Of a DNA stretch of 15,292 nt, positions 1-15,292 are shown piece by piece. Below the pieces are notes generated by a model. That model was not told the DNA's origin and made no database searches. It worked only from the letters and a program-made list of their open reading frames with translations. The stretch is from IMG/VR virus record IMGVR_UViG_2675903366_000018. The stretch is one strand, 5' to 3'. The position numbers were made by a program, and so were the translations under genes. Each line of letters begins with the position of its first letter. The first letter of the stretch is position 1. Source of the DNA: a virus. Its lineage: Duplodnaviria; Heunggongvirae; Uroviricota; Caudoviricetes.

Positions 1-200
1 TGTCAGTTATCATCTTCGGTTACGGTTATCGGCAGAACGCCCTGCCGCTGACAAGAGCTTATTTGCCTGACCAATCTACTCCACATGATAGATAACTATC
101 ATTTATAGCATTTGGCTTATTATCCTTTATTTTTCATTGCGTTACAAACAATAAGCTCGTCAAAAACAGTAAAATTAACTACACCATTAACTACACCGTT

Positions 201-231
201 CCACGAACAATATCGAACAACCACGAACAAA
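201..231. repeat. Three direct 10-bp repeats (CCACGAACAA / TATCGAACAA / CCACGAACAA); near-identical second copy at 8429-8460
   Basis: Read directly from sequence: heptamer CGAACAA recurs three times at exactly 10-bp spacing; about 26 of 28 bases match the array upstream of the capsid gene. Confidence 0.8.
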
Positions 232-293
232 GATCAACACGCTTTAATCGTTATCGTTTTCCGGCTATCCGTTATCAAGCTGGTTGATGTGGT

Positions 294-325
294 GCCACTT
301 TTCCACCAATGGTGGAAAAGCCCAC
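294..325. repeat. 32-bp element GCCACTTTTCCACCAATGGTGGAAAAGCCCAC with internal palindrome (9-10 bp arms); exact second copy at 1005-1036
   Basis: Exact 32/32 match between 294-325 and 1005-1036; TTTTCCACCA / TGGTGGAAAA are reverse complements around a central A. Confidence 0.85.
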
Positions 326-455
326 CAGCGCAACGCATTTTTTAATTTCGCGGGTATAAAAATTTGACGGGGCGGATAGTTCCATAAGTAATGGATTGCA
401 GGAATTTCGATCCCCCTCCTGAATGCAATTTTTCGTATATATATATACAAAACAG

Positions 456-613
456 TGCGGGTTATGCGGGTTAGCGGGTTATCTTCGCGTGCTAAGTATT
501 TTTTATTCTTTAATATCAATACGTTAAAAAATGACGTGTTTAAATATTAGCCAAAACGTAACCCGCAAGACATTCAAAATAACCCGCAACCCCCCCCCAA
601 ATAACCCGCAAAC
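456..613. repeat. Origin-like iteron cluster: 3 tandem GCGGGTTAT-type repeats (456-483), ~75 bp AT-rich spacer, 3 inverted ATAACCCGCAA repeats at ~21-bp spacing (558-611)
   Basis: Same iteron sequence and same direct / AT-rich / inverted layout as the cluster at 9596-9722 downstream of the replication gene. Includes a (TA)6 run at 436-448 nearby and a C9 homopolymer at 590-598. Confidence 0.6.
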
Positions 614-1004
614 GCATCAGGAAAGTGGGTCCAGTGATGCCATCGAACGGCTGAATCGGGTAACGTTCTGTTGCCGGGTTGTTGTTTGCGGGTCAGCAAT
701 ACTGACGCGCAAAGTTAGTTGTATGTGGCTGTGCGTCCACCAGCTACGCCGGAATCGGGTATTCCGTTTCAACGGAACAGGTATGACGAACATGATCGCA
801 CCTTCTCCCGAAAACGGGTTTTCCTGTTTCGGGAAAATGGACACATGAAGCTGCATAGCGATTTTCACTATTCAGGGTCTGGCGGGTGAGTTTCTCAATT
901 TCCGCAGTTGGTGGAAATTAAACGAATACAGCGAGTTAGAACAAGGTGACTAATGGTCACTCTGTTGCTGCGTCACCATATTGATGATCCAGCCCTGTAG
1001 TCGC

Positions 1005-1036
1005 GCCACTTTTCCACCAATGGTGGAAAAGCCCAC
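1005..1036. repeat. Second copy of the 32-bp palindrome-containing repeat (see 294-325)
   Basis: Exact match to 294-325; followed at 1053-1067 by a second small hairpin (TCCCCC AAT GGGGGA) with the same AAT loop. Confidence 0.85.
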
Positions 1037-1581
1037 AGCAGGCCGCCCAGCCTCCCCCAATGGGGGATTCTGGAAGAATCAACGGGTTAGGCTGGTTTCC
1101 CCGATGTTCGCCGCTGGCGAATTTCGAAAATATCAACCAGTTACGTTAACGGCTATGGTCTGACAAGACAAACCACCGGGTAAATCAGATAATTACAGCA
1201 CCAGAATGTAAATTTATACTCTGCTTTAATATCAGTGGGTTAGGCCAAAGCCCGAAAAAGTGCTTTGTAAAAACTGAATACTGTAACTTTAACTTACGGT
1301 AATTGTTCTGCCTCGGTGCGCTCTCTTCCGTGGTCATTTCGACCATGCACCACACGAAAAGGGGGAGTGTTTATCACCTCCCCTTCGTGGTGATTTCCAC
1401 CATGCAGCCATCGCACCGCCACGCAAAAGGGATTTACCACTACCAGCTATATCCCTCAAATCCACCAGCGCAACACAGAACGCATAAAACCATTACGATG
1501 ACTCAGGACGCAAAACCACGTTTAACGTTGTTTTGCACTGAACCAGAATACTGTTCGTCTTTGTCTCGATGTCCGTACGCA

Positions 1582-1875
1582 TTACGTACGCAGCCGCTCC
1601 GGTTTCTTCCACTGGTAAGTCTTTTTCTCGCTCTCCCGATACATCTCCACGCGGCGACGATATGACAACAACTCCAGAACTCTGATCCGTATGTCGCGCA
1701 TATCCACGCCGTTAAGCTCAATACCATCACGGCGCATCACCTCAGCCACCACACGCGCGTAATTTTCAGCGGTGACAGTTTCCGGCTGCGTGGCCTCACG
1801 TTTGCCTGCTGCCGGGCTGATTCCGGTAACGCGGCGGATTATTTTTAGTAGTTCGGTTTCGCTCATTCTCGTCAT
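1582..1875 (-). CDS. Hypothetical protein (97 aa), translationally coupled to terL
   Basis: ATG at 1873-1875 overlaps the terL TGA stop (1872-1874) as ATGA; charged, non-repetitive composition. No recognisable family by eye. Confidence 0.45.
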   Translation of the reverse strand: MTRMSETELLKIIRRVTGISPAAGKREATQPETVTAENYARVVAEVMRRDGIELNGVDMRDIRIRVLELLSYRRRVEMYRESEKKTYQWKKPERLRT

Positions 1876-3533
1876 ACCCCATCAAACGCCGCAAGCCGCT
1901 CTTTGTGGCTGTCGCTTATATCAAAGGCAAAATCTTCATGCTCTGCCTGGAATGTGCCAAACGCCATCAGCGCCGCAACGCTCGGGTCTATCTTGTTGGA
2001 TGATTTTTTCTTGTTCGGCTTGATATTGGCGTTCGCGTCACTCTGCATCACAACATTACTCATTGACCAGGCCAGCACCGGATCACCACGATGCACAATC
2101 ACCTTCCGGTTAACAAAAACTTCGAACGATTTCGCCGCCGGACTGAAACGAAGGTATGTTTGCGGGAACGGCTCCACCTCAAATCCCGCGCCCTGTAGCT
2201 GCGTCCTCAGGTGCGTGGCGTTCCATGTATCGAAACCCACCAGCCTGATATTGAAATTCTCTGCATCCGCCATGATGTCATCACGGATACGGTCATAATC
2301 AATGCAGTCACCCGGTGTTGTGCGTATCCAGCCCGCCTTTGCCCACTGGCGATAGATGGCGCGGTTTTTATTGGCAGGGTTCTGTAGCTGAAATTCCGGC
2401 AGATAGTGACGGGAAACCAGCATAATCTTTTTACCGACCGGGAAGGCATAGCACACGCTGGAAATATCGCTGGTTGATGATAAGTCCAGCCCCGCGTAGC
2501 ACTCCTGCCCGTATAAATCCGCCTCCGCGAACGTTCCGGCGCACTCCGCCCATGCACCGTTACCCATCCATGGCGTAGCCCCCTGACACCAGATGTTAAA
2601 TCGCTTAGTAAGCATCTCCACCCACTGCGACGGAATACCCCGCGCTTTCTGGATGGTTGAGGCCAGTTTTTCACGATCGACGGAAACATCGATATTGGGA
2701 TTCGCCTTTATCCACATCGCCGGATCGTCAACCTCGCTTTCATCATCCAGCTCGTAAATCAGCACGAACATGGATTCATTCACCTCTTCACCATCCAGTA
2801 TCTGGCAGCAATAGTCATAGTGTTGTTTACAGGCTGAAACAACGTTGCTCCCCGATGTGGTGATGGCAAATAACAGCCCCTCCGGGCGTGCCCCCATTCC
2901 CAGTTCAAGCGCGGAATAAACCCCGTTGTCAGGGTGCAGGTGATATTCATCCACAATGGCGAGACTCGGGTTTGTCCCCTCAATGGTTGCCGCTTTTGCT
3001 GCCAGTGGCTTTAACAGGCTGTTGGTTTTCGGGTGTATCACCTTGTGCGCCTGAATATTTACCCGCTTTCGTAACGGTCGGGATAAAAGGCACATCTGAC
3101 GCGCATCATCAAACACGATCCGCGCCTGATCACGACTCACGGCGGCGGTGTAAATATCCTGCTGCCCGTTTTCCATAACCAGAAACCAGTTAGCCAGGAT
3201 AGCCGCGACCGTGGATTTGGCATTTTTTCGCGGTACTTCAATGAATGCGCTGGTGTATTTGCGCCGTCCGGTGGCCTTAACCTTAAAGCCCAGGATGCAG
3301 GCAAAGGCGAACTGCTGCCACGGCTCCAGCTCAATGGGGCTACCGCGCATTGCGCCTTTTACGTGCGGACACACCCTGGAAAAGGCAATAAACCGCTCCA
3401 CGACCTCCGGATCGAACGTGTAAAGGGGGTTTTCAAGGTCAGAAAAATACCGTTTAACGGCCTGTTTCAGTCGTTTACAGGCCGTAATTTTGCCGTTTTT
3501 TACGCCTTCTGCGTACTCATGCCAGGTGGTCAA
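1872..3533 (-). CDS. terL: Phage terminase large subunit
   Basis: 553-aa ORF; conserved terminase N-terminus (EYAEGVKNGKITACKRLKQAVKRYF), P-loop-like VPRKNAKST and Walker-B-like LAIVDEYH. No ATG near the 5' end; most upstream start is TTG at 3531-3533 behind a purine-rich AGAGGAAGAGGA stretch, overlapping terS by 17 nt. Confidence 0.9.
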   Translation of the reverse strand: MTTWHEYAEGVKNGKITACKRLKQAVKRYFSDLENPLYTFDPEVVERFIAFSRVCPHVKGAMRGSPIELEPWQQFAFACILGFKVKATGRRKYTSAFIEVPRKNAKSTVAAILANWFLVMENGQQDIYTAAVSRDQARIVFDDARQMCLLSRPLRKRVNIQAHKVIHPKTNSLLKPLAAKAATIEGTNPSLAIVDEYHLHPDNGVYSALELGMGARPEGLLFAITTSGSNVVSACKQHYDYCCQILDGEEVNESMFVLIYELDDESEVDDPAMWIKANPNIDVSVDREKLASTIQKARGIPSQWVEMLTKRFNIWCQGATPWMGNGAWAECAGTFAEADLYGQECYAGLDLSSTSDISSVCYAFPVGKKIMLVSRHYLPEFQLQNPANKNRAIYRQWAKAGWIRTTPGDCIDYDRIRDDIMADAENFNIRLVGFDTWNATHLRTQLQGAGFEVEPFPQTYLRFSPAAKSFEVFVNRKVIVHRGDPVLAWSMSNVVMQSDANANIKPNKKKSSNKIDPSVAALMAFGTFQAEHEDFAFDISDSHKERLAAFDGV

Positions 3534-3873
3534 GCTCGTCCTCTTCCTCTGTTTCCGGTGGATTTCTGCGGCGGCTTACCGGGTCAAAACCCAGCAAAGA
3601 AGCCATTTTGATCATTATTCTTTCTGCGTCAGCCTTTGCGCTCAGTGCGGGGTTTCTGCTCTCGCTGCCCTGACTGTTAACAATGCTGAAGCCGCGTGTC
3701 GCAAGGTCTTCGACGGCTTTGCGGTATAGGGAGTAGTTAACGCAATACAGTTCCAGATTGCTCCAGTCGGCGGGGGTAAGGTCTTCCCGCCCGGATAGCT
3801 GGCGCGATTTTTCCTTCCACTGCCTGACCGCGATTTCATCCAGGTAAGCGGGGGCTTTTGGTGGTCTTGCCAT
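3517..3873 (-). CDS. terS: Phage terminase small subunit (P27-family-like)
   Basis: Start taken at internal ATG 3871-3873 (MARPPKAP...), not the 165-aa ORF start. C-terminal GSESRNPALSAKADAERIMIKMASLLGFDPVSRRR matches the P27-family pattern; sits immediately upstream of and overlapping terL. Confidence 0.7.
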   Translation of the reverse strand: MARPPKAPAYLDEIAVRQWKEKSRQLSGREDLTPADWSNLELYCVNYSLYRKAVEDLATRGFSIVNSQGSESRNPALSAKADAERIMIKMASLLGFDPVSRRRNPPETEEEDELDHLA

Positions 3874-4161
3874 GTTCTTTTTTCGCCCAATTATTTTCAA
3901 AAAAATTCCCGTGCACAAAAATTTGAGGAGGCGGTCGGTGTCCGGCATGGACGGTTTCGTCCTGAAAACCTCCCCCACCCCCTCTGACGGCCTCACCAGC
4001 GATTGCGAAAACATTCCATGACCTCGCGGTCACGGTCGGTTAATCGCTTCGCTGTGGTGCGTTCTGTGCGCCCTGTCCTGTTGGCTTTGTGCTCTGTCTC
4101 CTGTGTCTTCCATGTGTCACGCTGCCTTATCAGTCCACGTATCAGCCTGTTTTGCTCCTGT

Positions 4162-7069: not shown

Positions 7070-8239
7070 CTAGCCAGCTTTCATTTCCAGAATTTTGATG
7101 GCGTTTGAATCCACCACACCACCGCCCAGATATTTATCCGTGTGGACCTTGTAGAATCCGGGTTCAGTAATGTTGTCCGGTCGGGTGCGAATCCCTGTTA
7201 CATGATCAACGATGAAATAACCACGACTGAAATCGCCAACCGCCAGCGGTGCTTTTCCTGCGCCGATGTCCGGCATGGACTCCAGGCAGTAAACAGGACG
7301 ACCAAGCAACATATCCGGCGCACCTTCTTTAAGGCTGTCGCGCCAGATATAATCGCCGTTCTCATTTTTCAGCTTCTGTAGTGTCCCTGCCGTGCCCGAG
7401 TTCATCACCCAGACGGCATTTTTGCGGTATTTCGCTTTCAGCCTGTAGAGAATGTCGATCAGTTCGTCCGCTGTAATGGCGGTTCCACTTGCCGCTATCA
7501 TTTTTTCAATGGTGCCAAAAGCGCGGGTTTTGTCACTGGTCGCTGCACGGGTGTAAGCCATGAAGCCTTTCGGCTTGCCGTTACCGTCGCCATTAACAAA
7601 ATCATCCTCTTCGGTGCTGGCGAACGTGTCGGCAATTTCGGAGGATAACCAGCCCAGAATATCCACCTCTGAAAAATCCAGAATTTCCTGCGTGGTTTTC
7701 GGGTAGGCGTAGATCGGATTCAGCTTGATGGTTACGCGTTCAATTTTCGGGGTGTTGGTTTCGCTGCGCGCGCTGCCTTCTGTGCCTCTTCCTACAGTTG
7801 CGCCGCCAGTGGAAACCAGTTTCTGAAACTCATTTGATTTTGCGGTCTTCACGGTCGCGATCACGCGCATAACACTGTCATCCTGTAGCTGGCGCATGAC
7901 TTCGCGATCAAGCTCAGGAATTACGGTATATCCGCCATCCCTGCCGCTGTCAGTGCTGGTGGATAGTGATCGCACATCTCCGGTTACGATGTAGTTACGC
8001 AATTCATCAGATGATAATTTCCGGATGCCCGTTCCTGGCTTGCTGCGTTCTTCATCAGCCACAGACTCGAGGCGGGAAATTTCTGTGCCGAGGGAATCGG
8101 CTTTTGCACGCAGTTCATCAAACTGTTTGCCCTCGTCATCGTTCAGGCTACGGTTTTCACTGTCGGCTTTTTCCAGCAGGGATCGCATCTGGTTTTTCAG
8201 GGCGTTTTTTTGCTGGCGGAGTTCGATTAATTTCTTCAT
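7070..8239 (-). CDS. Major capsid protein, HK97 fold, with N-terminal coiled-coil (scaffold/delta-like) region
   Basis: 389 aa; the first ~100 residues are heptad-like and rich in E/K/R/L, followed by a capsid-like domain; ATG at 8237-8239. Followed directly by protease and portal genes. Confidence 0.85.
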   Translation of the reverse strand: MKKLIELRQQKNALKNQMRSLLEKADSENRSLNDDEGKQFDELRAKADSLGTEISRLESVADEERSKPGTGIRKLSSDELRNYIVTGDVRSLSTSTDSGRDGGYTVIPELDREVMRQLQDDSVMRVIATVKTAKSNEFQKLVSTGGATVGRGTEGSARSETNTPKIERVTIKLNPIYAYPKTTQEILDFSEVDILGWLSSEIADTFASTEEDDFVNGDGNGKPKGFMAYTRAATSDKTRAFGTIEKMIAASGTAITADELIDILYRLKAKYRKNAVWVMNSGTAGTLQKLKNENGDYIWRDSLKEGAPDMLLGRPVYCLESMPDIGAGKAPLAVGDFSRGYFIVDHVTGIRTRPDNITEPGFYKVHTDKYLGGGVVDSNAIKILEMKAG

Positions 8240-9106: not shown

Positions 9107-9532
9107 TTAAAACGGTATCCCGTCCCCGTACGGATCATCGTGCTGGCCTGTCTGTTGTTTTGCCCTGTTCAGTGCGTCAGTGGCCTGGCCCTGTTGACCT
9201 TTTTTGCCGCCCGGTCGCGCCGTTCGCGCACTGATTACGCTGTCTGCAATAACCTGCCAGCCCTGCCGCGTTTCGCCGTTCTGCCCTGTCCACTGGCTTA
9301 CCTGCATGTTACCCGCCACGCTCACCAGTTCGCCTTTGCGGTGTTTTGCCAGTGCGTCGGCCTGTCTGCCAAACGCCAGGACGGATAACCACATCGTCGC
9401 CGTTCCGTCATCTGCCTGGCTGCATGGAAGGGGAACCGCCATACTCACCATCGCCATTTGTGTCCCCTTGCTGGTGGTCTTTAACTGCGGGTCAGCCACC
9501 AGCCGACCGTAAGCCGCTATCTGTGCTGTCAT
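9107..9532 (-). CDS. ssb: Single-stranded DNA-binding protein
   Basis: 141 aa; Gly/Gln-rich linker and acidic C-terminal tail ...DDPYGDGIPF, the SSB protein-interaction tip; ATG at 9530-9532 with GGAGAG upstream. Confidence 0.75.
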   Translation of the reverse strand: MTAQIAAYGRLVADPQLKTTSKGTQMAMVSMAVPLPCSQADDGTATMWLSVLAFGRQADALAKHRKGELVSVAGNMQVSQWTGQNGETRQGWQVIADSVISARTARPGGKKGQQGQATDALNRAKQQTGQHDDPYGDGIPF

Positions 9533-9595: not shown

Positions 9596-9722
9596 TGCGG
9601 GTTATAATCGCACTTTTGCGGGTTATAACTGCCGTTTTGCGGGTTACGTGCGGGTTATTGATTTCCTTTTTATTCATACAGTTAATGCACTTATACACAG
9701 GATAACCCGCATAACCCGCAAC
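9596..9722. repeat. Putative replication origin: 4 direct TGCGGGTTAT iterons (starts 9596, 9617, 9638, 9649), 40-bp AT-rich spacer, 2 inverted ATAACCCGC copies (9702, 9711)
   Basis: Read directly from sequence; 21-bp spacing of the first three iterons; ends 20 bp before the replication gene's stop codon (9743-9745), the usual place for the ori in PICI/SaPI-type satellites. Confidence 0.6.
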
Positions 9723-9742: not shown

Positions 9743-11875
9743 TTAATCTTCTGCCTCAGGCTGGAACATCAGCACGTAAAAAACATGCTGCTTCCCCCCA
9801 ATTTTGCCGAGCGCCTTTTTCTTGTAACGGCGATCGTTACCCGCTTCCAGCATTCCGGCAGCACTCAACGCGCGGGCAAAGTGAGACGGATTAAATCCCT
9901 GTGCTATCTCACCCTCAAACACATGCGGGAACGTGTAAAAACGGAACTCGTCATCTTCGTTTCTGATACTCCCCTTTCTGTATCCGGCAAGCTCTTTAAT
10001 CGGTAAATCACGCTCGTCAGAGTTGGGCCAAGGAAGGTATCTGCTGAATCCGAACGACGCTAAAAAAGCCTCTGCCTGTTCAACCATCTGTTTAAACTCC
10101 CTGTTCCCCGTGCCGAACTCCTTCACCCAGGCATTAAAATTATGCTGAATGGCATCGCGGCATTCCTGCTCATCCCAGCCAGTAACATGACCGGAAAGTA
10201 CAAGCGCGGCCTCCAGTATGGCGAATCGTTCCCCCACACGGTGAACCTGTTCGCCGTAGCTCTCCGGTATCAGGTTGCGCCACCGCTCGCGACATGCCCT
10301 TACCGCGTCCTTTGCCTCCTGCTGGTGTTCTGCCAGCCATTTAACCCACTCACGACCTGCCGCCCCGTGATTTTCTGTCCAGGCATCTTTTAACGCGTCT
10401 GCGTGCGCCTTTCCGGTGCTGTATTCGTGAAACTGCGAGGCCTTTTCCATCGGCACGTTAAGCAGACGGACAAGCTGCCCCGCTTTAATTTTTATCCCTT
10501 CCGTTTTGAGGAATGTTTCAACGTCCATTTCTCCGGTGCTGATTGCCACCGTGCGCCAGTGTTTTATCTCCCTGTTGCCGCCGTCCTTCGCCCCCTGTAA
10601 TTTCCCCGAACCGTTAAACAGCGTATAGGCTGACGTGGACACCTCCCGCGCGTTTCCGGCCTGGCCTATTTCATCCAGGGGTAACAGCCCGTCATTATGT
10701 GCTTCGGCCTCGTTGGCGATACCTAACGCCGTTCCGTACCAGGTCAGCCGTTGCGCGTCCGGCTCTCCCCATAAACTGGATGCGATGTTCTGTGTGGTGG
10801 TTTTCCCTGCTGATGACTGTTCGAAAAGATGTACCCCGAAGCCGTCAGCACCCACCAGCCCGATTAATGGTGCTGATAACGATACCGCCACACCCAGCAT
10901 CATGGACGGATTACCACCAGCCAACCGCGCAACGGTATCGCGCCAGCCCTCCGCCGTTCCTGCCTCGGAATAACCATTAACAGCGGCAGTTTTTCCGGTA
11001 AACAGGACTGGCTTTTCGCAATCACCAATGACCGAACCGTCCGGCATGATGTACGCGCCAAAATGCCAGCCCGTTGTTGTGCTTAACTGCCATTCCTCAT
11101 GGTTTCCGCTTAACTGCATCCAGTCAGCCAGGATAGCCCTGTATTTACCGTTGGTTGTCACATTCAGTCCGTGGTCTTTCAGCAGCCGCCAGCCGTCACG
11201 GTCGCCAATGCCCCCACACGGGATCGCCATTGTGATGACTTCATGGTTTGCTGGTTTTTTCCAGCGCATCACGCGGTAATGCTCTTTGCCGATTGTCCCC
11301 GTTCCCAGTAGTTCAAGCGGGGAACATAACCACGTCTCAGGCCGGATAATTTCGCCTGACTGCTTATCCACTTTTGGCGTTACCCAGAAAACACCATCGG
11401 CACGGCTTTCAACGCGGGGCTTTAATTCATCATCACCCGGGCTTGTGGTGGTTTTTTTCTTTACCGGAAGCTTAATTACCAGATCTGCAGAAAGATTCTG
11501 ACGCTCAACGTTCAGATAGCGCCGCCAGTTCTCACATTTCTGACCGTGCATTCCTTCAGGGTAAAAATTCGCATCCTGAATATCTGCCGCCGCCAGCTTC
11601 TGACCGATCTTTTTGGTCTCCACTAAATCCAGTTCTCCGGCCTGGTACAGCCTTACGCGTTTTTTCCCATCCGGAACAATTTTCAGCGCATCAAGTTCGG
11701 CAAGCTGATTTGGCCCAAGCCACACAGGCGGCACATCATCGCCAGATGCGGGGCCGTCCTGCTCCTGCCACTGTTTTGCATGTGCCCACGCATCACTACC
11801 CGCGAAAATAATTACCTCTGTGTCTTTGTGTTTTATTCCGCGTGGTTGTTTTTTTACGTTCGGTGCCAGTTTCAT
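9743..11875 (-). CDS. Replication initiator, primase/helicase-type (Pri-Rep-like), with central P-loop NTPase
   Basis: 710 aa; Walker A GVHLFEQSSAGKTTT and Walker B GLLPLDEIG in the central region; resembles DUF927/primase-associated replication proteins of satellites; ATG at 11873-11875 overlaps the upstream ORF's stop (ATGA). Confidence 0.75.
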   Translation of the reverse strand: MKLAPNVKKQPRGIKHKDTEVIIFAGSDAWAHAKQWQEQDGPASGDDVPPVWLGPNQLAELDALKIVPDGKKRVRLYQAGELDLVETKKIGQKLAAADIQDANFYPEGMHGQKCENWRRYLNVERQNLSADLVIKLPVKKKTTTSPGDDELKPRVESRADGVFWVTPKVDKQSGEIIRPETWLCSPLELLGTGTIGKEHYRVMRWKKPANHEVITMAIPCGGIGDRDGWRLLKDHGLNVTTNGKYRAILADWMQLSGNHEEWQLSTTTGWHFGAYIMPDGSVIGDCEKPVLFTGKTAAVNGYSEAGTAEGWRDTVARLAGGNPSMMLGVAVSLSAPLIGLVGADGFGVHLFEQSSAGKTTTQNIASSLWGEPDAQRLTWYGTALGIANEAEAHNDGLLPLDEIGQAGNAREVSTSAYTLFNGSGKLQGAKDGGNREIKHWRTVAISTGEMDVETFLKTEGIKIKAGQLVRLLNVPMEKASQFHEYSTGKAHADALKDAWTENHGAAGREWVKWLAEHQQEAKDAVRACRERWRNLIPESYGEQVHRVGERFAILEAALVLSGHVTGWDEQECRDAIQHNFNAWVKEFGTGNREFKQMVEQAEAFLASFGFSRYLPWPNSDERDLPIKELAGYRKGSIRNEDDEFRFYTFPHVFEGEIAQGFNPSHFARALSAAGMLEAGNDRRYKKKALGKIGGKQHVFYVLMFQPEAED

Positions 11876-13644: not shown

Positions 13645-14053
13645 ACAAAAACCTACATAAAAATTACGTATATAAACTTTTCTCTTAGCTGTAGATATAT
13701 GAGATCGGATATTACTTAGATTCTTTTTCACCTCTTAAATTAAAAACACAACCTTGCTAAAGGCTTTGTTCGCTAAGGTTCGTAGAAGCTCGTTAGTGTT
13801 TAAAATCGTGTCACGAGTTTTTAAGCGACGCAACAAAAAATGTCGTCATTTGGCATTACGCTTGAATTATCTCATTAAAAACAAATAGATAAACCATCAG
13901 GTATTGGAACAATCAAGAAATAGCTAATAAGGGTTTAGTAGGGTGCATTTCAATTTTTTCGATGGTTGACAAATAAAAAATTAACGAACTTGACCGATAT
14001 TTAGCGTTTTATTCACGGCTGTAATCTCTTAAAGAAAAAACAGCCGTAATTTG

Positions 14054-15292
14054 TCAAGAATTTTGGGTGTAAATTCGCGGGGTCATAACAACGATTTTTT
14101 CATCATTGTTCTGGAGAAGCTCGAGACGGTCTACCCATAGATTAAGAGCATCACGTTTTGCATCAAGATAACGGGAGTGGTTATAGACTCGCTGCATCCC
14201 TGGCATCTGGTGGGCTGTAAGCTGCTCGACAATATGCGGATCCACGCCTAAATCGTTCAGCATGGTTGTAAATGTGTGCCGGATGTCATGCAACGACCAG
14301 GGGGCTTGATTAATGCGTCTGTGTGCCGTTCTTCCGTACTCTGATACGGATGATTGCCCTTTCAGTTCTCCAAGCAATAAGCCCGTGTGCCTGTTCTTCT
14401 GCACCAGCTTCGTGACGAACGGCAAAATGCTTTCCGGTATTGGCCTGAATATGGCGACCTTCGTTTTGCTGTGCTCCTTCGGTACTGTCCAGAGCATTTC
14501 TTTAAAATCCCACTCCTGCACCTCAGAGCGCCTTAGCTCAGTGGTACGGCATCCAAAAACAATCAGGAGGCGAATTAGGGCGCTGTAGTATGGCGGGAAT
14601 ATTTTGTCATCCAGGGCGCGGAGTAATTCCCCAAGCTCCTTATTTGTTAGTACGCGCTCGCTCACTTCTGCTTTTTTTCCCACATCACCGACAACCATAT
14701 CATCAAGAACGTTGCTGATTGCGTATCGTCGTTTTCGGCAGTACTTAAGCGCCTGTTTGCATACCTGTAGCAAAAATCCGGCTGATACCGGATTACGCTT
14801 AGCAAGCTGGTCAAAACAGGCCAGCCAGTGGCGTAGCTCGCATTTTTCCAGTGGCATAGCGCCAATCTGGCTAATTATGTGTTTATTGATCCGGCTTTTC
14901 AGTGATTCGTAGTCAGTGCGCTTTTCCTTTGCGTACGATTCAAGCCAGTAAGTGAGCGCTTCCTTAACCGTCACGGGGGCTAACGCATCCTGTACAGCAT
15001 GATTAAGTTCATAGCGCGGATTTTTCCCCTCAGCCAGCCAGGCGCGACACTGTGCCGCTTTTTCCCTGGCAGCTTTCAGGCTCAGATCGGGATAATTGCC
15101 CAGCCTCAGACGTTCCGGTGATATCTGCCTACCAGTTCCGGCCCTGTAAGTGAAATACCAGGTTAACAGGCCATTGATTGAATGCCTTACGCTAAGGTTG
15201 CCACCATCATTAAAAAAGGTGCTTTTTGTGGTTGGTGATCCGCTTAATTTTCGTAAAAGAGTGTCGCTAAGTCTATGAATTGCCCTGCTCAT
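14054..15292 (-). CDS. int: Tyrosine site-specific integrase (P4-like family)
   Basis: 412 aa; catalytic-domain motifs GCRTTELRR, HDIRHTF (H-x-x-R) and YNHSRY (catalytic Tyr region); ATG is the last three bases of the window, so upstream attachment site and promoter are not visible. Confidence 0.9.
   Translation of the reverse strand: MSRAIHRLSDTLLRKLSGSPTTKSTFFNDGGNLSVRHSINGLLTWYFTYRAGTGRQISPERLRLGNYPDLSLKAAREKAAQCRAWLAEGKNPRYELNHAVQDALAPVTVKEALTYWLESYAKEKRTDYESLKSRINKHIISQIGAMPLEKCELRHWLACFDQLAKRNPVSAGFLLQVCKQALKYCRKRRYAISNVLDDMVVGDVGKKAEVSERVLTNKELGELLRALDDKIFPPYYSALIRLLIVFGCRTTELRRSEVQEWDFKEMLWTVPKEHSKTKVAIFRPIPESILPFVTKLVQKNRHTGLLLGELKGQSSVSEYGRTAHRRINQAPWSLHDIRHTFTTMLNDLGVDPHIVEQLTAHQMPGMQRVYNHSRYLDAKRDALNLWVDRLELLQNNDEKIVVMTPRIYTQNS

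Follow-up and report, generated by a model that had tools for sequence, protein, structure and literature searches.

A repeated 32-base palindromic element brackets an origin-like cassette at the non-coding end of a capsid-forming phage satellite

The window discussed here, the whole 15,292-nucleotide stretch of IMG/VR record IMGVR_UViG_2675903366_000018, carries near one end the same 32 bases twice, 711 bp apart and on either side of a segment that resembles a replication origin. What is such a pair for? An earlier note, made from the sequence alone, offered att-site duplicates, recognition hairpins for a recombinase or a terminase, or a small repeat element as candidates. We tentatively favour a form of the last of these, a stem-loop cassette of about 35 bp that serves as a structure-forming recombination joint or survives as a mosaic scar, and not as the target of a recombinase or terminase. 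The features on which the argument rests are as follows.

1-106: host flank, upstream clpS / yljB region, 99% match to empty-site E. coli genomes
87-106: att core GATAGATAACTATCATTTAT, coinciding with the end of host homology
174-232, plus strand: putative integrase arm-type repeats, ATTAACTACACC twice and CGAACAA three times
279-286, plus strand: Chi with one mismatch, GCTGGTTG, left arm of a Chi bracket
294-325, plus strand: 32-mer copy 1, a cassette of about 35 nt within the Chi bracket, both edges being mosaic junctions
322-329, minus strand: Chi (GCTGGTGG read on the minus strand), overlapping the last four bases of copy 1, start of the shared module
426-664: putative auxiliary (distal) iteron origin cassette, three direct GCGGGTTA at 457-481 and three inverted at 559-609
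514-526, plus strand: IHF consensus TATCAATACGTTA inside the AT-rich spacer of the distal origin
737-744, minus strand: Chi, right of the distal origin
897-919 and 926-938, plus strand: degenerate stem-loop AATTTCCGCAGTTGGTGGAAATT and degenerate box ATACAGCGAGTTA, a canonical unit
1005-1036, plus strand: 32-mer copy 2, the resident copy, with native left flank TTGATGATCCAG
1008-1051, plus strand: 44-nt patch in common with the Rha/Ant gene of SSU5-like phage-plasmids, where it encodes TFPPMVEKPTAGRPA
1053-1067 and 1077-1089, plus strand: stem-loop TCCCCCAATGGGGGA, 10-nt spacer, IHF-consensus box AATCAACGGGTTA
1107-1121 and 1131-1143, plus strand: stem-loop TTCGCCGCTGGCGAA, 10-nt spacer, IHF-consensus box TATCAACCAGTTA
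1145-1590: 446-nt segment absent from F11 and CFT073, present in the cf-PICI PEC148
1582-1875, minus strand: last gene of the packaging operon, 97 aa, phrog_1561
9470-9503: invariant convergent (Chi> ... <Chi) bracket GCTGGTGGTCTTTAACTGCGGGTCAGCCACCAGC
9597-9719: rep-proximal iteron cluster, four direct and two inverted GCGGGTTA

The window represents a phage satellite, a phage-inducible chromosomal island of the capsid-forming type (cf-PICI), which has integrated between clpS and cspD. The gene set of this island comprises integrase, a DUF927 pri-rep, capsid, portal, HNH, TerS and TerL. At the F11 locus clpS ends just left of the position equivalent to base 1, and empty-site E. coli genomes diverge from the window beyond base 106, which places the island boundary at about that base and bears out the view that the repeats lie at an island end. 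The att core at this boundary has a counterpart, GATAAATAACTATCATCTAT (20 nt, two mismatches), beyond int in the sister island L001. The neighbouring arm-type repeats also adjoin int, at the opposite island side in L001, and are found in PICIs at other att sites. An end-to-end repeat search returned GATAGATAACTATCATTTAT, not the 32-mer, as the sequence common to both island ends. Copies 1 and 2 are 188 nt and 899 nt inward from the boundary, at one and the same end of the island, and the 32-mer is missing from 5,362 of 5,426 E. coli genomes, whereas an att site requires its core in the unoccupied locus.

The terminase proposal finds no support either. The 32-mers are unlikely to be terminase sites because they also occur in PICIs with other, unrelated packaging modules: the F11 island, with a protease-capsid fusion and DUF1441, carries the same 32-mer, and the CFT073 island, with a lambda-type cos, has a near-identical copy. 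The cosN sites of CFT073 (L004 9605 and 10344) are internal to that island and away from the 32-mer, cf-PICIs have a conserved cos-like non-coding stretch upstream of terS, and the terminal region of the window holds no lambda-like cosN. The likeness to lambda attP and cos is real in so far as IHF-consensus sites and dyad elements lie near an integrase-associated end; however, the att core and arm repeats of the window are elsewhere (87-232), as are the cosN or cos-like stretches of related islands. Direct repeats close to an island end, able to form hairpins with dyad symmetry, made att duplicates or cos/pac hairpins a natural guess, but elements that sit on one island side and are shared by PICIs differing in integrase, att site and packaging system make it scarcely credible. 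With the boundary now fixed at 87-106, the att and terminase reading of the 32-mers can go.

The element itself is well defined. The exact repeat GCCACTTTTCCACCAATGGTGGAAAAGCCCAC is present at both positions on the plus strand, has no further match in the window with up to three mismatches allowed, and in 200 shuffles the number of such pairs expected by chance was 0; at 95% identity the likeness of the copies reaches 37 nt (289-325 versus 1000-1036). Its core, CTTTTCCACCA-A-TGGTGGAAAAG, is a perfect 23-bp palindrome (298-320 in copy 1, 1009-1031 in copy 2) for which a hairpin with a 10-bp stem and a 3-nt loop was computed, as the earlier note had supposed, with fold energies of -9.7 kcal/mol as DNA (z -4.6) and -13.8 kcal/mol as RNA (z -4.3). 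The second hairpin that the note had pointed out, TCCCCCAATGGGGGA at 1053-1067, proves to be one compensated pair (A>C with T>G) away from the 32-mer core, and a third, degenerate relative at 897-919 had escaped it; at the latter position L013 has a perfect palindrome. The recurrence of CCACCAGCGCAAC at 322-334 and 1462-1474 is also as described, and its first eight bases are the reverse complement of Chi, GCTGGTGG. The degenerate TTCCACCATG-type motifs do exist, as a 29-nt repeat (1321-1349 and 1378-1406, 83%), but they are part of another unit, in which a small hydrophobic ORF segment is copied in degenerate form.

Scans for a conventional role of the hairpin in RNA returned little. On both strands a T-run precedes and an A-run follows the stem, the reverse of an intrinsic terminator. 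A terminator scan called neither copy and gave three terminator-like sites against 2.3 expected. Promoter-like sites were neither enriched nor found near either copy, and an Rfam scan of window 1-1900 at E<=1 yielded no covariance-model match. Across the family the stems vary from CCACC/GGTGG to CCCCC/GGGGG or CACAG/CTGTG, and the O157 copies have a paired A/T deletion; together with the folding z of about -4, this variation indicates that structure is kept rather than sequence, which we count in favour of a joint or scar. Against selection on structure, uncompensated variants (TGGCGG, TGGAGG, F11 copy 1 and 897-919) are about as many as compensated ones in what is a plain tabulation of few independent variants with indels among them, and palindromes can persist through templated mutation without selection.

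The search for other genomic copies that the note had proposed, run on 5,426 E. coli genomes, gave 91 places in 64 of them, all of which are PICI ends or the Rha gene of a phage-plasmid. The 32-mer is also present in 21 viral contigs and, among about 185,000 species representatives, in two. A common genome-wide repeat unrelated to the island, the result that would have spoken against the note's view, is therefore not what was found. Apart from the one phage-plasmid gene, the family is confined to the att-proximal non-coding end of enterobacterial PICIs, and there it occurs across islands differing in integrase, att site and packaging system. The idea of a small repeat element thus stands, in the form of a PICI-restricted stem-loop family.

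The non-coding end as a whole, about 1.5 kb long, contains stem-loop units that each have an IHF-consensus box at fixed spacing. All 37 PICI loci in which such arrays were found have them in the interval from att to the last gene, and each PICI type examined has the phrog_1561 gene beside the array. In 23 of 56 unique units the box comes 9-11 nt after the end of a perfect stem of 6 bp or more, against 0.9% of random positions. All three exact matches to the IHF consensus WATCAANNNNTTR fall within 514-1143, with 0.63 expected in the whole window. The arrays are absent from 50,697 phage genomes; plasmids have no arrays and only the Rha patch in common. The 446-nt segment next to the packaging operon holds a degenerate leader and small hydrophobic ORF unit (about 1245-1420) and the Chi at 1462-1469. 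The arrays recall the REP/BIME elements, whose RIP/RIB forms have palindromes flanking an IHF site, in being short, intergenic, mosaic assemblies of variable-stem palindromes and IHF-consensus boxes. Unlike REP, which occurs genome-wide in hundreds of copies, the 32-mer is limited to those 64 genomes, in PICIs and a phage-plasmid gene; the PICI sequences are unrelated to the REP consensus, and their units are fixed in order (stem-loop, about 10 nt, box) and in place (att to last gene). The PICI literature searched does not discuss the non-coding end of cf-PICIs or of classical E. coli PICIs.

What the two copies enclose also turned out to be much as suggested. Six GCGGGTTA iterons, three direct and three inverted, surround an AT-rich spacer (486-555, 70 bp) with the IHF consensus, and 438-589 matches L046 14001-14152 at 81% identity, a stretch that immediately follows the DUF927 rep gene of an O157:H7 cf-PICI. 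Judged by its iteron-origin layout and this homology, the bracketed segment appears to be a true origin homologue of mosaic descent, corresponding by homology to half of the rep-adjacent origin in an EcCIEDL933-type island, where the two iteron clusters are adjacent. The window has 12 GCGGGTTA against 0.56 expected, all within two clusters, of which the rep-proximal one (9597-9719) lies directly downstream of pri-rep (9743-11875, minus strand). A recent duplication of this rep-proximal origin was considered as the source of the distal one and rejected, the iterons alone being in common. F11 and PEC148 carry the distal cassette though their own rep-proximal iterons differ, and CFT073 lacks the distal module. 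The N-terminal part of Rep (about 160 aa) was likewise rejected as the domain of iteron specificity: F11 is 84% alike there, yet has different rep-proximal iterons.

Two known systems offer themselves for comparison. In the P4 satellite two separated iteron regions, ori and crr, are bound by the alpha primase-helicase. The window island has P4-like integrase and primase-helicase genes and two clusters of one iteron about 9 kb apart (9597-9719 and 457-609); it differs from P4 in iteron sequence and in Rep type (DUF927), and in that its clusters are adjacent in the EcCIEDL933-type island and that the distal one also occurs in islands with other iterons. The SaPI-type origin, with two iteron sets round an AT-rich region 3' of rep, has the same layout as both window clusters, except that here one unit is displaced to the att-proximal end and bracketed by 32-mers. 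The literature searched, including the cf-PICI preprint, contained no experimental origin mapping for these E. coli islands, and a search for PICI origins with iterons or IHF found nothing specific.

The surroundings of the origin clusters are rich in Chi. Exact octamers number 15 in the window, where 0.47 would be expected; the minus strand has 12 of these, and the non-coding end accounts for three (CCACCAGC at 322-329, 737-744 and 1462-1469); in 23 PICI contigs the density is 0.94/kb, compared with 0.24/kb in the host flanks. The phage-plasmid P1 is Chi-rich as well. With exact octamers that are strand-biased and about four times as dense as in the flanking chromosome, these islands resemble such cases; the difference is that here convergent Chi pairs bracket a palindrome next to each origin cluster. 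The layout is GCTGGTGG...palindrome...(CATCAT)GCCCACCAGC, the two sites faced each other wherever the bracket was seen across the 23 contigs, and in the PICIs compared the bracket beside the origin module always contains a palindrome. The mismatched left Chi of the window (279-286) is an intact GCTGGTGG in F11 and other PICIs. Searching the literature for Chi or RecBCD in phage satellites brought up one unrelated review and nothing specific.

It is in this bracket that copy 1 lies, and the two copies differ in how settled they look. The context of copy 2 is identical in F11, PEC148, L013 and L026, and its left flank is homologous in CFT073 and in class B units. At the position of copy 1, F11 and L065 have a diverged version, and the same bracket in L013, L048, L066, L065 and PEC148 is occupied by another palindrome, one of TATGGGAATTCCCATA type. 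Over 1-1144 the window agrees with F11 at 98.8% identity, but in the left arm of copy 1 three substitutions and one indel are clustered, and only the window version equals copy 2. This has the look of a conversion signature, and copy 1 is probably a patch of about 35 nt recently converted to the exact sequence of copy 2. Among the 60 E. coli matches listed, themselves a sample out of 627 genomes, 16 begin at 320-322, at the Chi on the edge of copy 1, and further matches among those listed have a boundary at a hairpin edge (973, 1047/1053, 1072/1078 or 1092); the breakpoints at 320 may merely mark the end of an integrase-specific arm and the start of the common module.

Taken together, the restricted family, the discrete cassette, the apparent conversion, the breakpoints and the Chi excess point to a recombination joint or its scar, a reading we put forward tentatively. 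Copy 1, probably converted from copy 2, occupies the conserved Chi-palindrome-Chi bracket at the left edge of the auxiliary origin cassette. We infer that the palindrome can extrude as a hairpin or cruciform. Since the Chi site on each flank points towards it, a break or stalled fork there would put RecBCD into recombinogenic mode no further than about 30 bp away in each direction. PICIs would thereby swap end modules, the origin cassette included, at this joint, and the two copies would bracket the origin because of how the mosaic end was assembled. Two considerations weigh against this. A 23-bp palindrome is far shorter than those that SbcCD cleaves efficiently, which counts against breakage, and the constant presence of a palindrome in the bracket, like the arrays, could instead be due to a positive cis-acting role in replication or in building a nucleoprotein complex.

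Such a function is the strongest rival, though unlikely. The palindromes, the phased IHF-type boxes and the second iteron cluster might form a nucleoprotein region for replication or copy control, perhaps analogous to P4 crr or the inc iterons of plasmids, in which the stem-loops would be structural elements, for instance cruciforms, or single-strand hairpins used in priming or helicase loading. The 37 array loci with their constant position, the stem-to-box phasing, the confinement of the exact IHF matches to 514-1143, the shared iteron of two clusters that lie side by side in the EcCIEDL933-type island, and a bracket that is never without its palindrome beside the origin module all argue for it. 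Yet copy 1 has no box, copy 2 is parted from the next box by the 44-nt patch and a hairpin, the distal origin occurs in islands with other iterons (F11 and PEC148) and is missing in CFT073, and the palindrome sequences are interchangeable. A further rival takes the element as the operator of a dimeric DNA-binding protein from the island or its helper, and the two copies as paired sites that would loop out or insulate the origin. Helix-turn-helix dimers typically have operators of this kind, a perfect dyad of 23 bp; the copies 711 bp apart are identical, and the rha/ant gene of SSU5-like phage-plasmids contains this dyad too. Close relatives nevertheless tolerate broken symmetry (F11 copy 1, class B TGGCGG), other PICIs have unrelated palindromes at the copy 1 position, part of the stem variation is compensatory, for which a base-specific operator would have no use, and no candidate regulator co-varies in the few islands compared, so that we give an operator only a slim chance.

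The remaining readings turn on small ORFs. Relics of leader hairpins, stranded as neutral copies by the loss of their ORF and now without function, are a doubtful explanation, though one that overlaps our preferred joint or scar rather than excluding it. In L005, L018, L046 and class B contigs a native unit, ATGATGATCCAG-hairpin-GCTCCAACCGTAACG-ATG and ORF, has 13 nt between the hairpin and a small hydrophobic ORF downstream of it (MFVVVALMVCVVIMTIQ...), whose product may be a toxin-like membrane peptide; copy 1 and its flanks align to this unit, the window has only the degenerate ORF copy at about 1245-1420, and neither copy has a promoter-like site close by. The ORF is itself unproven, however, its peptide having only four unnamed matches in 5.8 billion proteins and no known family, and 32-nt exact identity with a perfect palindrome speaks against long neutral decay. 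Very improbable is a coding or antisense role, with ORF 981-1163 (plus strand) giving a Rha-wing-like peptide or read-through of the minus-strand late operon running antisense to the rha/ant mRNA of SSU5-like phage-plasmids. The 44-nt patch differs from the Rha/Ant gene at third codon positions, and only there for AGRPA, and, a 9-nt indel notwithstanding, no stop interrupts the frame from (A/T)TGATGATCCAG to FPPMVEKPTAGRPASPNGG in the window, CFT073 or L041-L042. But a stop lies two codons upstream in copy 1, the hairpin falls in other frames in class B and O157 units, no Shine-Dalgarno-like sequence was seen upstream of the 981-1163 start, RefSeq has no gene there in F11 or PEC148, FPPxVEK appears on both strands merely from the palindrome, and nothing links these islands to SSU5-like helpers. 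The match to Rha/Ant covers 44 nt (15 codons) with no Phage_pRha-type domain, and neither ORF 981-1163 nor the hydrophobic peptide belongs to a Pfam, PHROG or NCBIfam family. Nucleotide-level selection on the palindrome within Rha genes was also considered and found no support, the homologue L035 being degenerate and uncompensated in a pattern search biased towards exact matches.

The non-coding end of PICIs is thus highly organised, with what appears to be a relocated second origin unit, stem-loop and IHF-box arrays and Chi in four-fold excess. Should these elements have a function, they would be relevant to how satellites without a RecBCD inhibitor replicate and survive as linear DNA, and to the cause of the marked mosaicism of PICI ends; should they be no more than scars, they would still document Chi-adjacent short-patch conversion in a mobile element. 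A bolder view, which we consider rather improbable, is that the PICI end is an undescribed cis region, a RecBCD-proof centre of replication and processing and a P4 crr analogue, built from the phased stem-loop and IHF-box array, the Chi-bracketed palindromes at the iteron clusters and the second origin unit, in which the 32-mer pair would be active and not a scar. Were that so, it would protect the rolling-circle tails or injected linear DNA of a satellite that has no RecBCD inhibitor, and would drive rapid exchange of modules between co-resident satellites.

The exact direct repeat described in the earlier note was borne out by a repeat search of the window: the 32-mer GCCACTTTTCCACCAATGGTGGAAAAGCCCAC stands at 294-325 (copy 1) and at 1005-1036 (copy 2), with no further match at up to three mismatches in the window and none in 200 shuffles, and the similarity between the copies reaches 37 nt. 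Its core is a perfect 23-bp palindrome that folds into a hairpin, its stem 10 bp long and its loop 3 nt (-9.7 kcal/mol as DNA, -13.8 kcal/mol as RNA, z about -4.5). The second AAT-loop hairpin at 1053-1067 was likewise confirmed and lies one compensated pair apart from this core, while a third, degenerate family member occupies 897-919. The CCACCAGCGCAAC repeat is real, its bases 1-8 being the complement of Chi; at about 1336-1406 the TTCCACCATG motifs are present too, but as a separate 29-nt repeat that forms part of a degenerate copy of another unit.

The large ORFs, all on the minus strand, encode an integrase, a DUF927 primase-helicase, an HK97-type capsid protein, a portal, an HNH protein, TerS and TerL, and the island is a capsid-forming phage-inducible chromosomal island (cf-PICI), a satellite family described in a preprint. 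The E. coli F11 island at the same clpS/cspD site carries another packaging module and has window 1-1144 in common, and the PEC148 cf-PICI at yifB has 320-1600; since each matches a different stretch, the region is mosaic. Island-free genomes align with the window up to base 106 only, and a 20-nt core (87-106) is found again beyond int in F11, which places the island end at about 106. Integrase arm-type repeats lie at 174-232, with a second set adjoining int. The 32-mers, 188 and 899 nt inside the island and both on the same side, cannot be the att duplicates once proposed. In unoccupied genomes an annotated small gene, yljB, covers the att site (window 1-106), and an island with the same arm is found there in 366 of 5,426 E. 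coli genomes.

Features of the window
457-609: distal iteron cluster, GCGGGTTA iterons
9597-9719: rep-proximal iteron cluster, GCGGGTTA iterons, immediately downstream of pri-rep
322-329, 737-744, 1462-1469, 9470-9477, 9496-9503: examples of Chi sites
897-938, 1053-1089, 1107-1143: canonical stem-loop and box units
about 1303-1420: degenerate copy of the candidate small hydrophobic ORF
4014, minus strand: start of terS
9743-11875, minus strand: initiator gene

The segment between the copies had been called ori-like, and rightly: it holds iterons and an AT-rich spacer and is homologous to the origin downstream of the DUF927 rep. The 8-mer GCGGGTTA occurs 12 times (0.56 expected) and is confined to two clusters, each with direct iterons on one side of an AT-rich spacer and inverted ones on the other, a layout that matches the SaPI-type origin; an exact IHF consensus lies inside the distal spacer. 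In the EcCIEDL933-type cf-PICI of O157:H7 (L046), homologues of both clusters are adjacent, downstream of the DUF927 rep (14000-14340), and the core of the window's distal cluster (438-589) matches one of the two at 81% identity. Because both homologues lie side by side there, the bracketed segment appears to be one half of a bipartite origin, here ~9 kb from rep, a separation resembling that of P4 ori and crr. The distal segment is a mobile cassette; absent from CFT073, it is present in F11 and PEC148 despite rep-proximal iterons of GGTAGACAG and TCCCCACTT type respectively, and since these islands' own iterons differ, it would be an orphan origin in both. The three initiator types (DUF927, P4-family primase and RepA-like helicase; compared in the window and at L001 21675-23429, L002 25665-27071 and L004 13918-15672) have only an N-terminal domain of ~120-160 aa in common, which is 84%, 67% and 41% identical to that of the window and does not follow iteron type among the islands compared.

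Copy 2 has the same sequence in the window, F11, PEC148 and two further loci (L013, L026). Copy 1 is a ~35-nt cassette with a mosaic junction at each edge. It is enclosed, at the origin module's left edge, by a conserved bracket, GCTGGTGG...palindrome...CCACCAGC, which another palindrome fills in L013, L048, L066, L065 and PEC148; a diverged copy 1 occurs in F11 and L065. Between the window and F11, three substitutions and one indel cluster in the left arm of copy 1 against a background of 98.8% identity, so that the exact identity of the copies can be read as probable recent short-patch conversion from copy 2. In the E. coli element L065 (2740-2810) a copy-1-type cassette with both Chi sites lies upstream of a 94-aa last-gene homologue, which indicates that the cassette moves between element types; at 3598-3650 two lambda-like cos variants (GGGGCGGCAGACGCGC) precede a small terminase gene.

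Chi (GCTGGTGG) occurs 15 times in the 15.3-kb window, 12 times on the gene strand, against 0.47 expected by shuffling, and its density averages 0.94 per kb in 23 PICI contigs compared with 0.24 per kb in host flanks. Such richness may protect a satellite without a RecBCD inhibitor. Chi pairs in these contigs are exclusively convergent (Chi>..<Chi), the reverse never being seen. One bracket encloses copy 1, its left Chi carrying one mismatch in the window; a second, invariant and beside the rep-proximal origin (9470-9503), is a 34-nt convergent pair, GCTGGTGGTCTTTAACTGCGGGTCAGCCACCAGC, within the N-terminal part of an SSB-like gene and about 90 nt from the iterons (elsewhere at L001 21070-21103, L002 25153-25186, L013 9513-9546, L018 8570-8603 and L057 8520-8553). 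RecBCD must meet Chi in the correct orientation, and by this polarity both sites of a bracket suit an enzyme travelling outward from a break between them. By inference, the palindrome would extrude as a hairpin, breakage would occur at it, and Chi would drive exchange at the bracket. Among 60 matches listed of 627 matching genomes, 16 start at 320-322 and other breakpoints coincide with hairpin edges.

PICI ends are arrays of a variable palindrome, about 10 nt and a ATCAACnnGTTA box, and many boxes fit the IHF consensus WATCAANNNNTTR by sequence match. In 23 of 56 unique units a perfectly paired stem of 6 bp or more ends 9-11 nt before the box, compared with 0.9% of random positions. Stem changes include compensated ones (CCACC/GGTGG to CCCCC/GGGGG and to CACAG/CTGTG, and a paired deletion in O157 copies); since uncompensated variants are about as frequent, the evidence for putative selection on stem structure is only moderate. 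No such array was found in 50,697 phage genomes. The palindrome and IHF combination resembles the RIP elements of REP/BIME, but the PICI arrays are not genome-wide and are fixed in position and order. In 37 PICI loci, arrays that reach about 8 units with a GAAAATATCAACCAGTTACCGC-type box fill the att-to-last-gene space (L046 5330-5790; L004 9040-9260; L005 2780-3080; window 897-1143), the final box overlapping the stop codon of a 93-97-aa gene. The cf-PICIs (window, PEC148) carry a 446-nt non-coding segment (1145-1590) that F11 and CFT073 lack; in these two islands the last box directly abuts the last gene.

The 32-mer itself is rare, being found in 2 of about 185,000 species representatives, 21 viral contigs and, among complete E. 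coli genomes, 64 of 5,426; the last count speaks against the genome-wide repeat once considered. Its contexts are of three kinds: within Rha/Ant of SSU5-like phage-plasmids, coding for FPPMVEK (class A); in a PICI unit, ATGATGATCCAG...hairpin...GCTCCAACCGTAACG-ATG, that leads into a candidate small hydrophobic ORF (class B); or, as in the window, with the left flank of class B and, to its right, 44 nt that resemble Rha (class C). A 44-47-nt patch (window 1008-1051; SSU5 4001-4047, gene SSU5_093) is shared with Rha/Ant of such phage-plasmids from Salmonella, E. coli, Klebsiella, Enterobacter and Citrobacter, with changes confined to third codon positions, and gives FPP(M/L)VEK on either strand because of the palindrome. 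The candidate hydrophobic ORF (MFVVVALMVCVVIMTIQ... / MIAMVASMVCVVIMTIQPVTLIRIFR) begins 13 nt past the family hairpin (L005 2696-2812 and 3233-3313; L046 from 5266; L018 362-443). Its substitutions are mainly synonymous or conserve hydrophobicity. Unannotated and matching no family, it has four unnamed database matches and may be a toxin-like membrane peptide.

Our leading reading, held at somewhat under even odds, takes the 32-mers as paralogous members of a stem-loop cassette family specific to PICIs; their arrangement around the origin cassette would record the assembly of a mosaic end, and copy 1 would occupy a recombination joint bracketed by Chi. A possible but weaker contender is that the stem-loop, IHF and iteron region acts positively in cis in replication; neither 32-mer copy is in phase with a box. 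The class B context would suit neutral, orphaned leader hairpins of the small ORF, which we consider unlikely, and the palindrome would suit an operator bound by a dimeric protein, less likely still.

A coding or antisense role tied to rha is quite improbable next to the cassette reading. Att or terminase sites are hardly credible: terminase recognition is disfavoured because the 32-mers occur with unrelated packaging systems and the CFT073 cosN sites are located elsewhere, and a conserved cos-like stretch lies upstream of terS in cf-PICIs. This G-rich, conserved non-coding stretch (GACGGGGTGGGGGGCGTTTTCAGG...), between an HNH-adjacent small ORF and terS (L046 about 8064-8190), is most likely the cos region of these cf-PICIs, a mapping not found in the cf-PICI literature examined.

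The specific finding is a variant of a kind already known: a mosaic junction occupied by a small palindromic repeat. The arrays, split origin and Chi brackets found no mention in the PICI literature examined, and this broader end architecture is a more interesting lead than the 32-mer itself.
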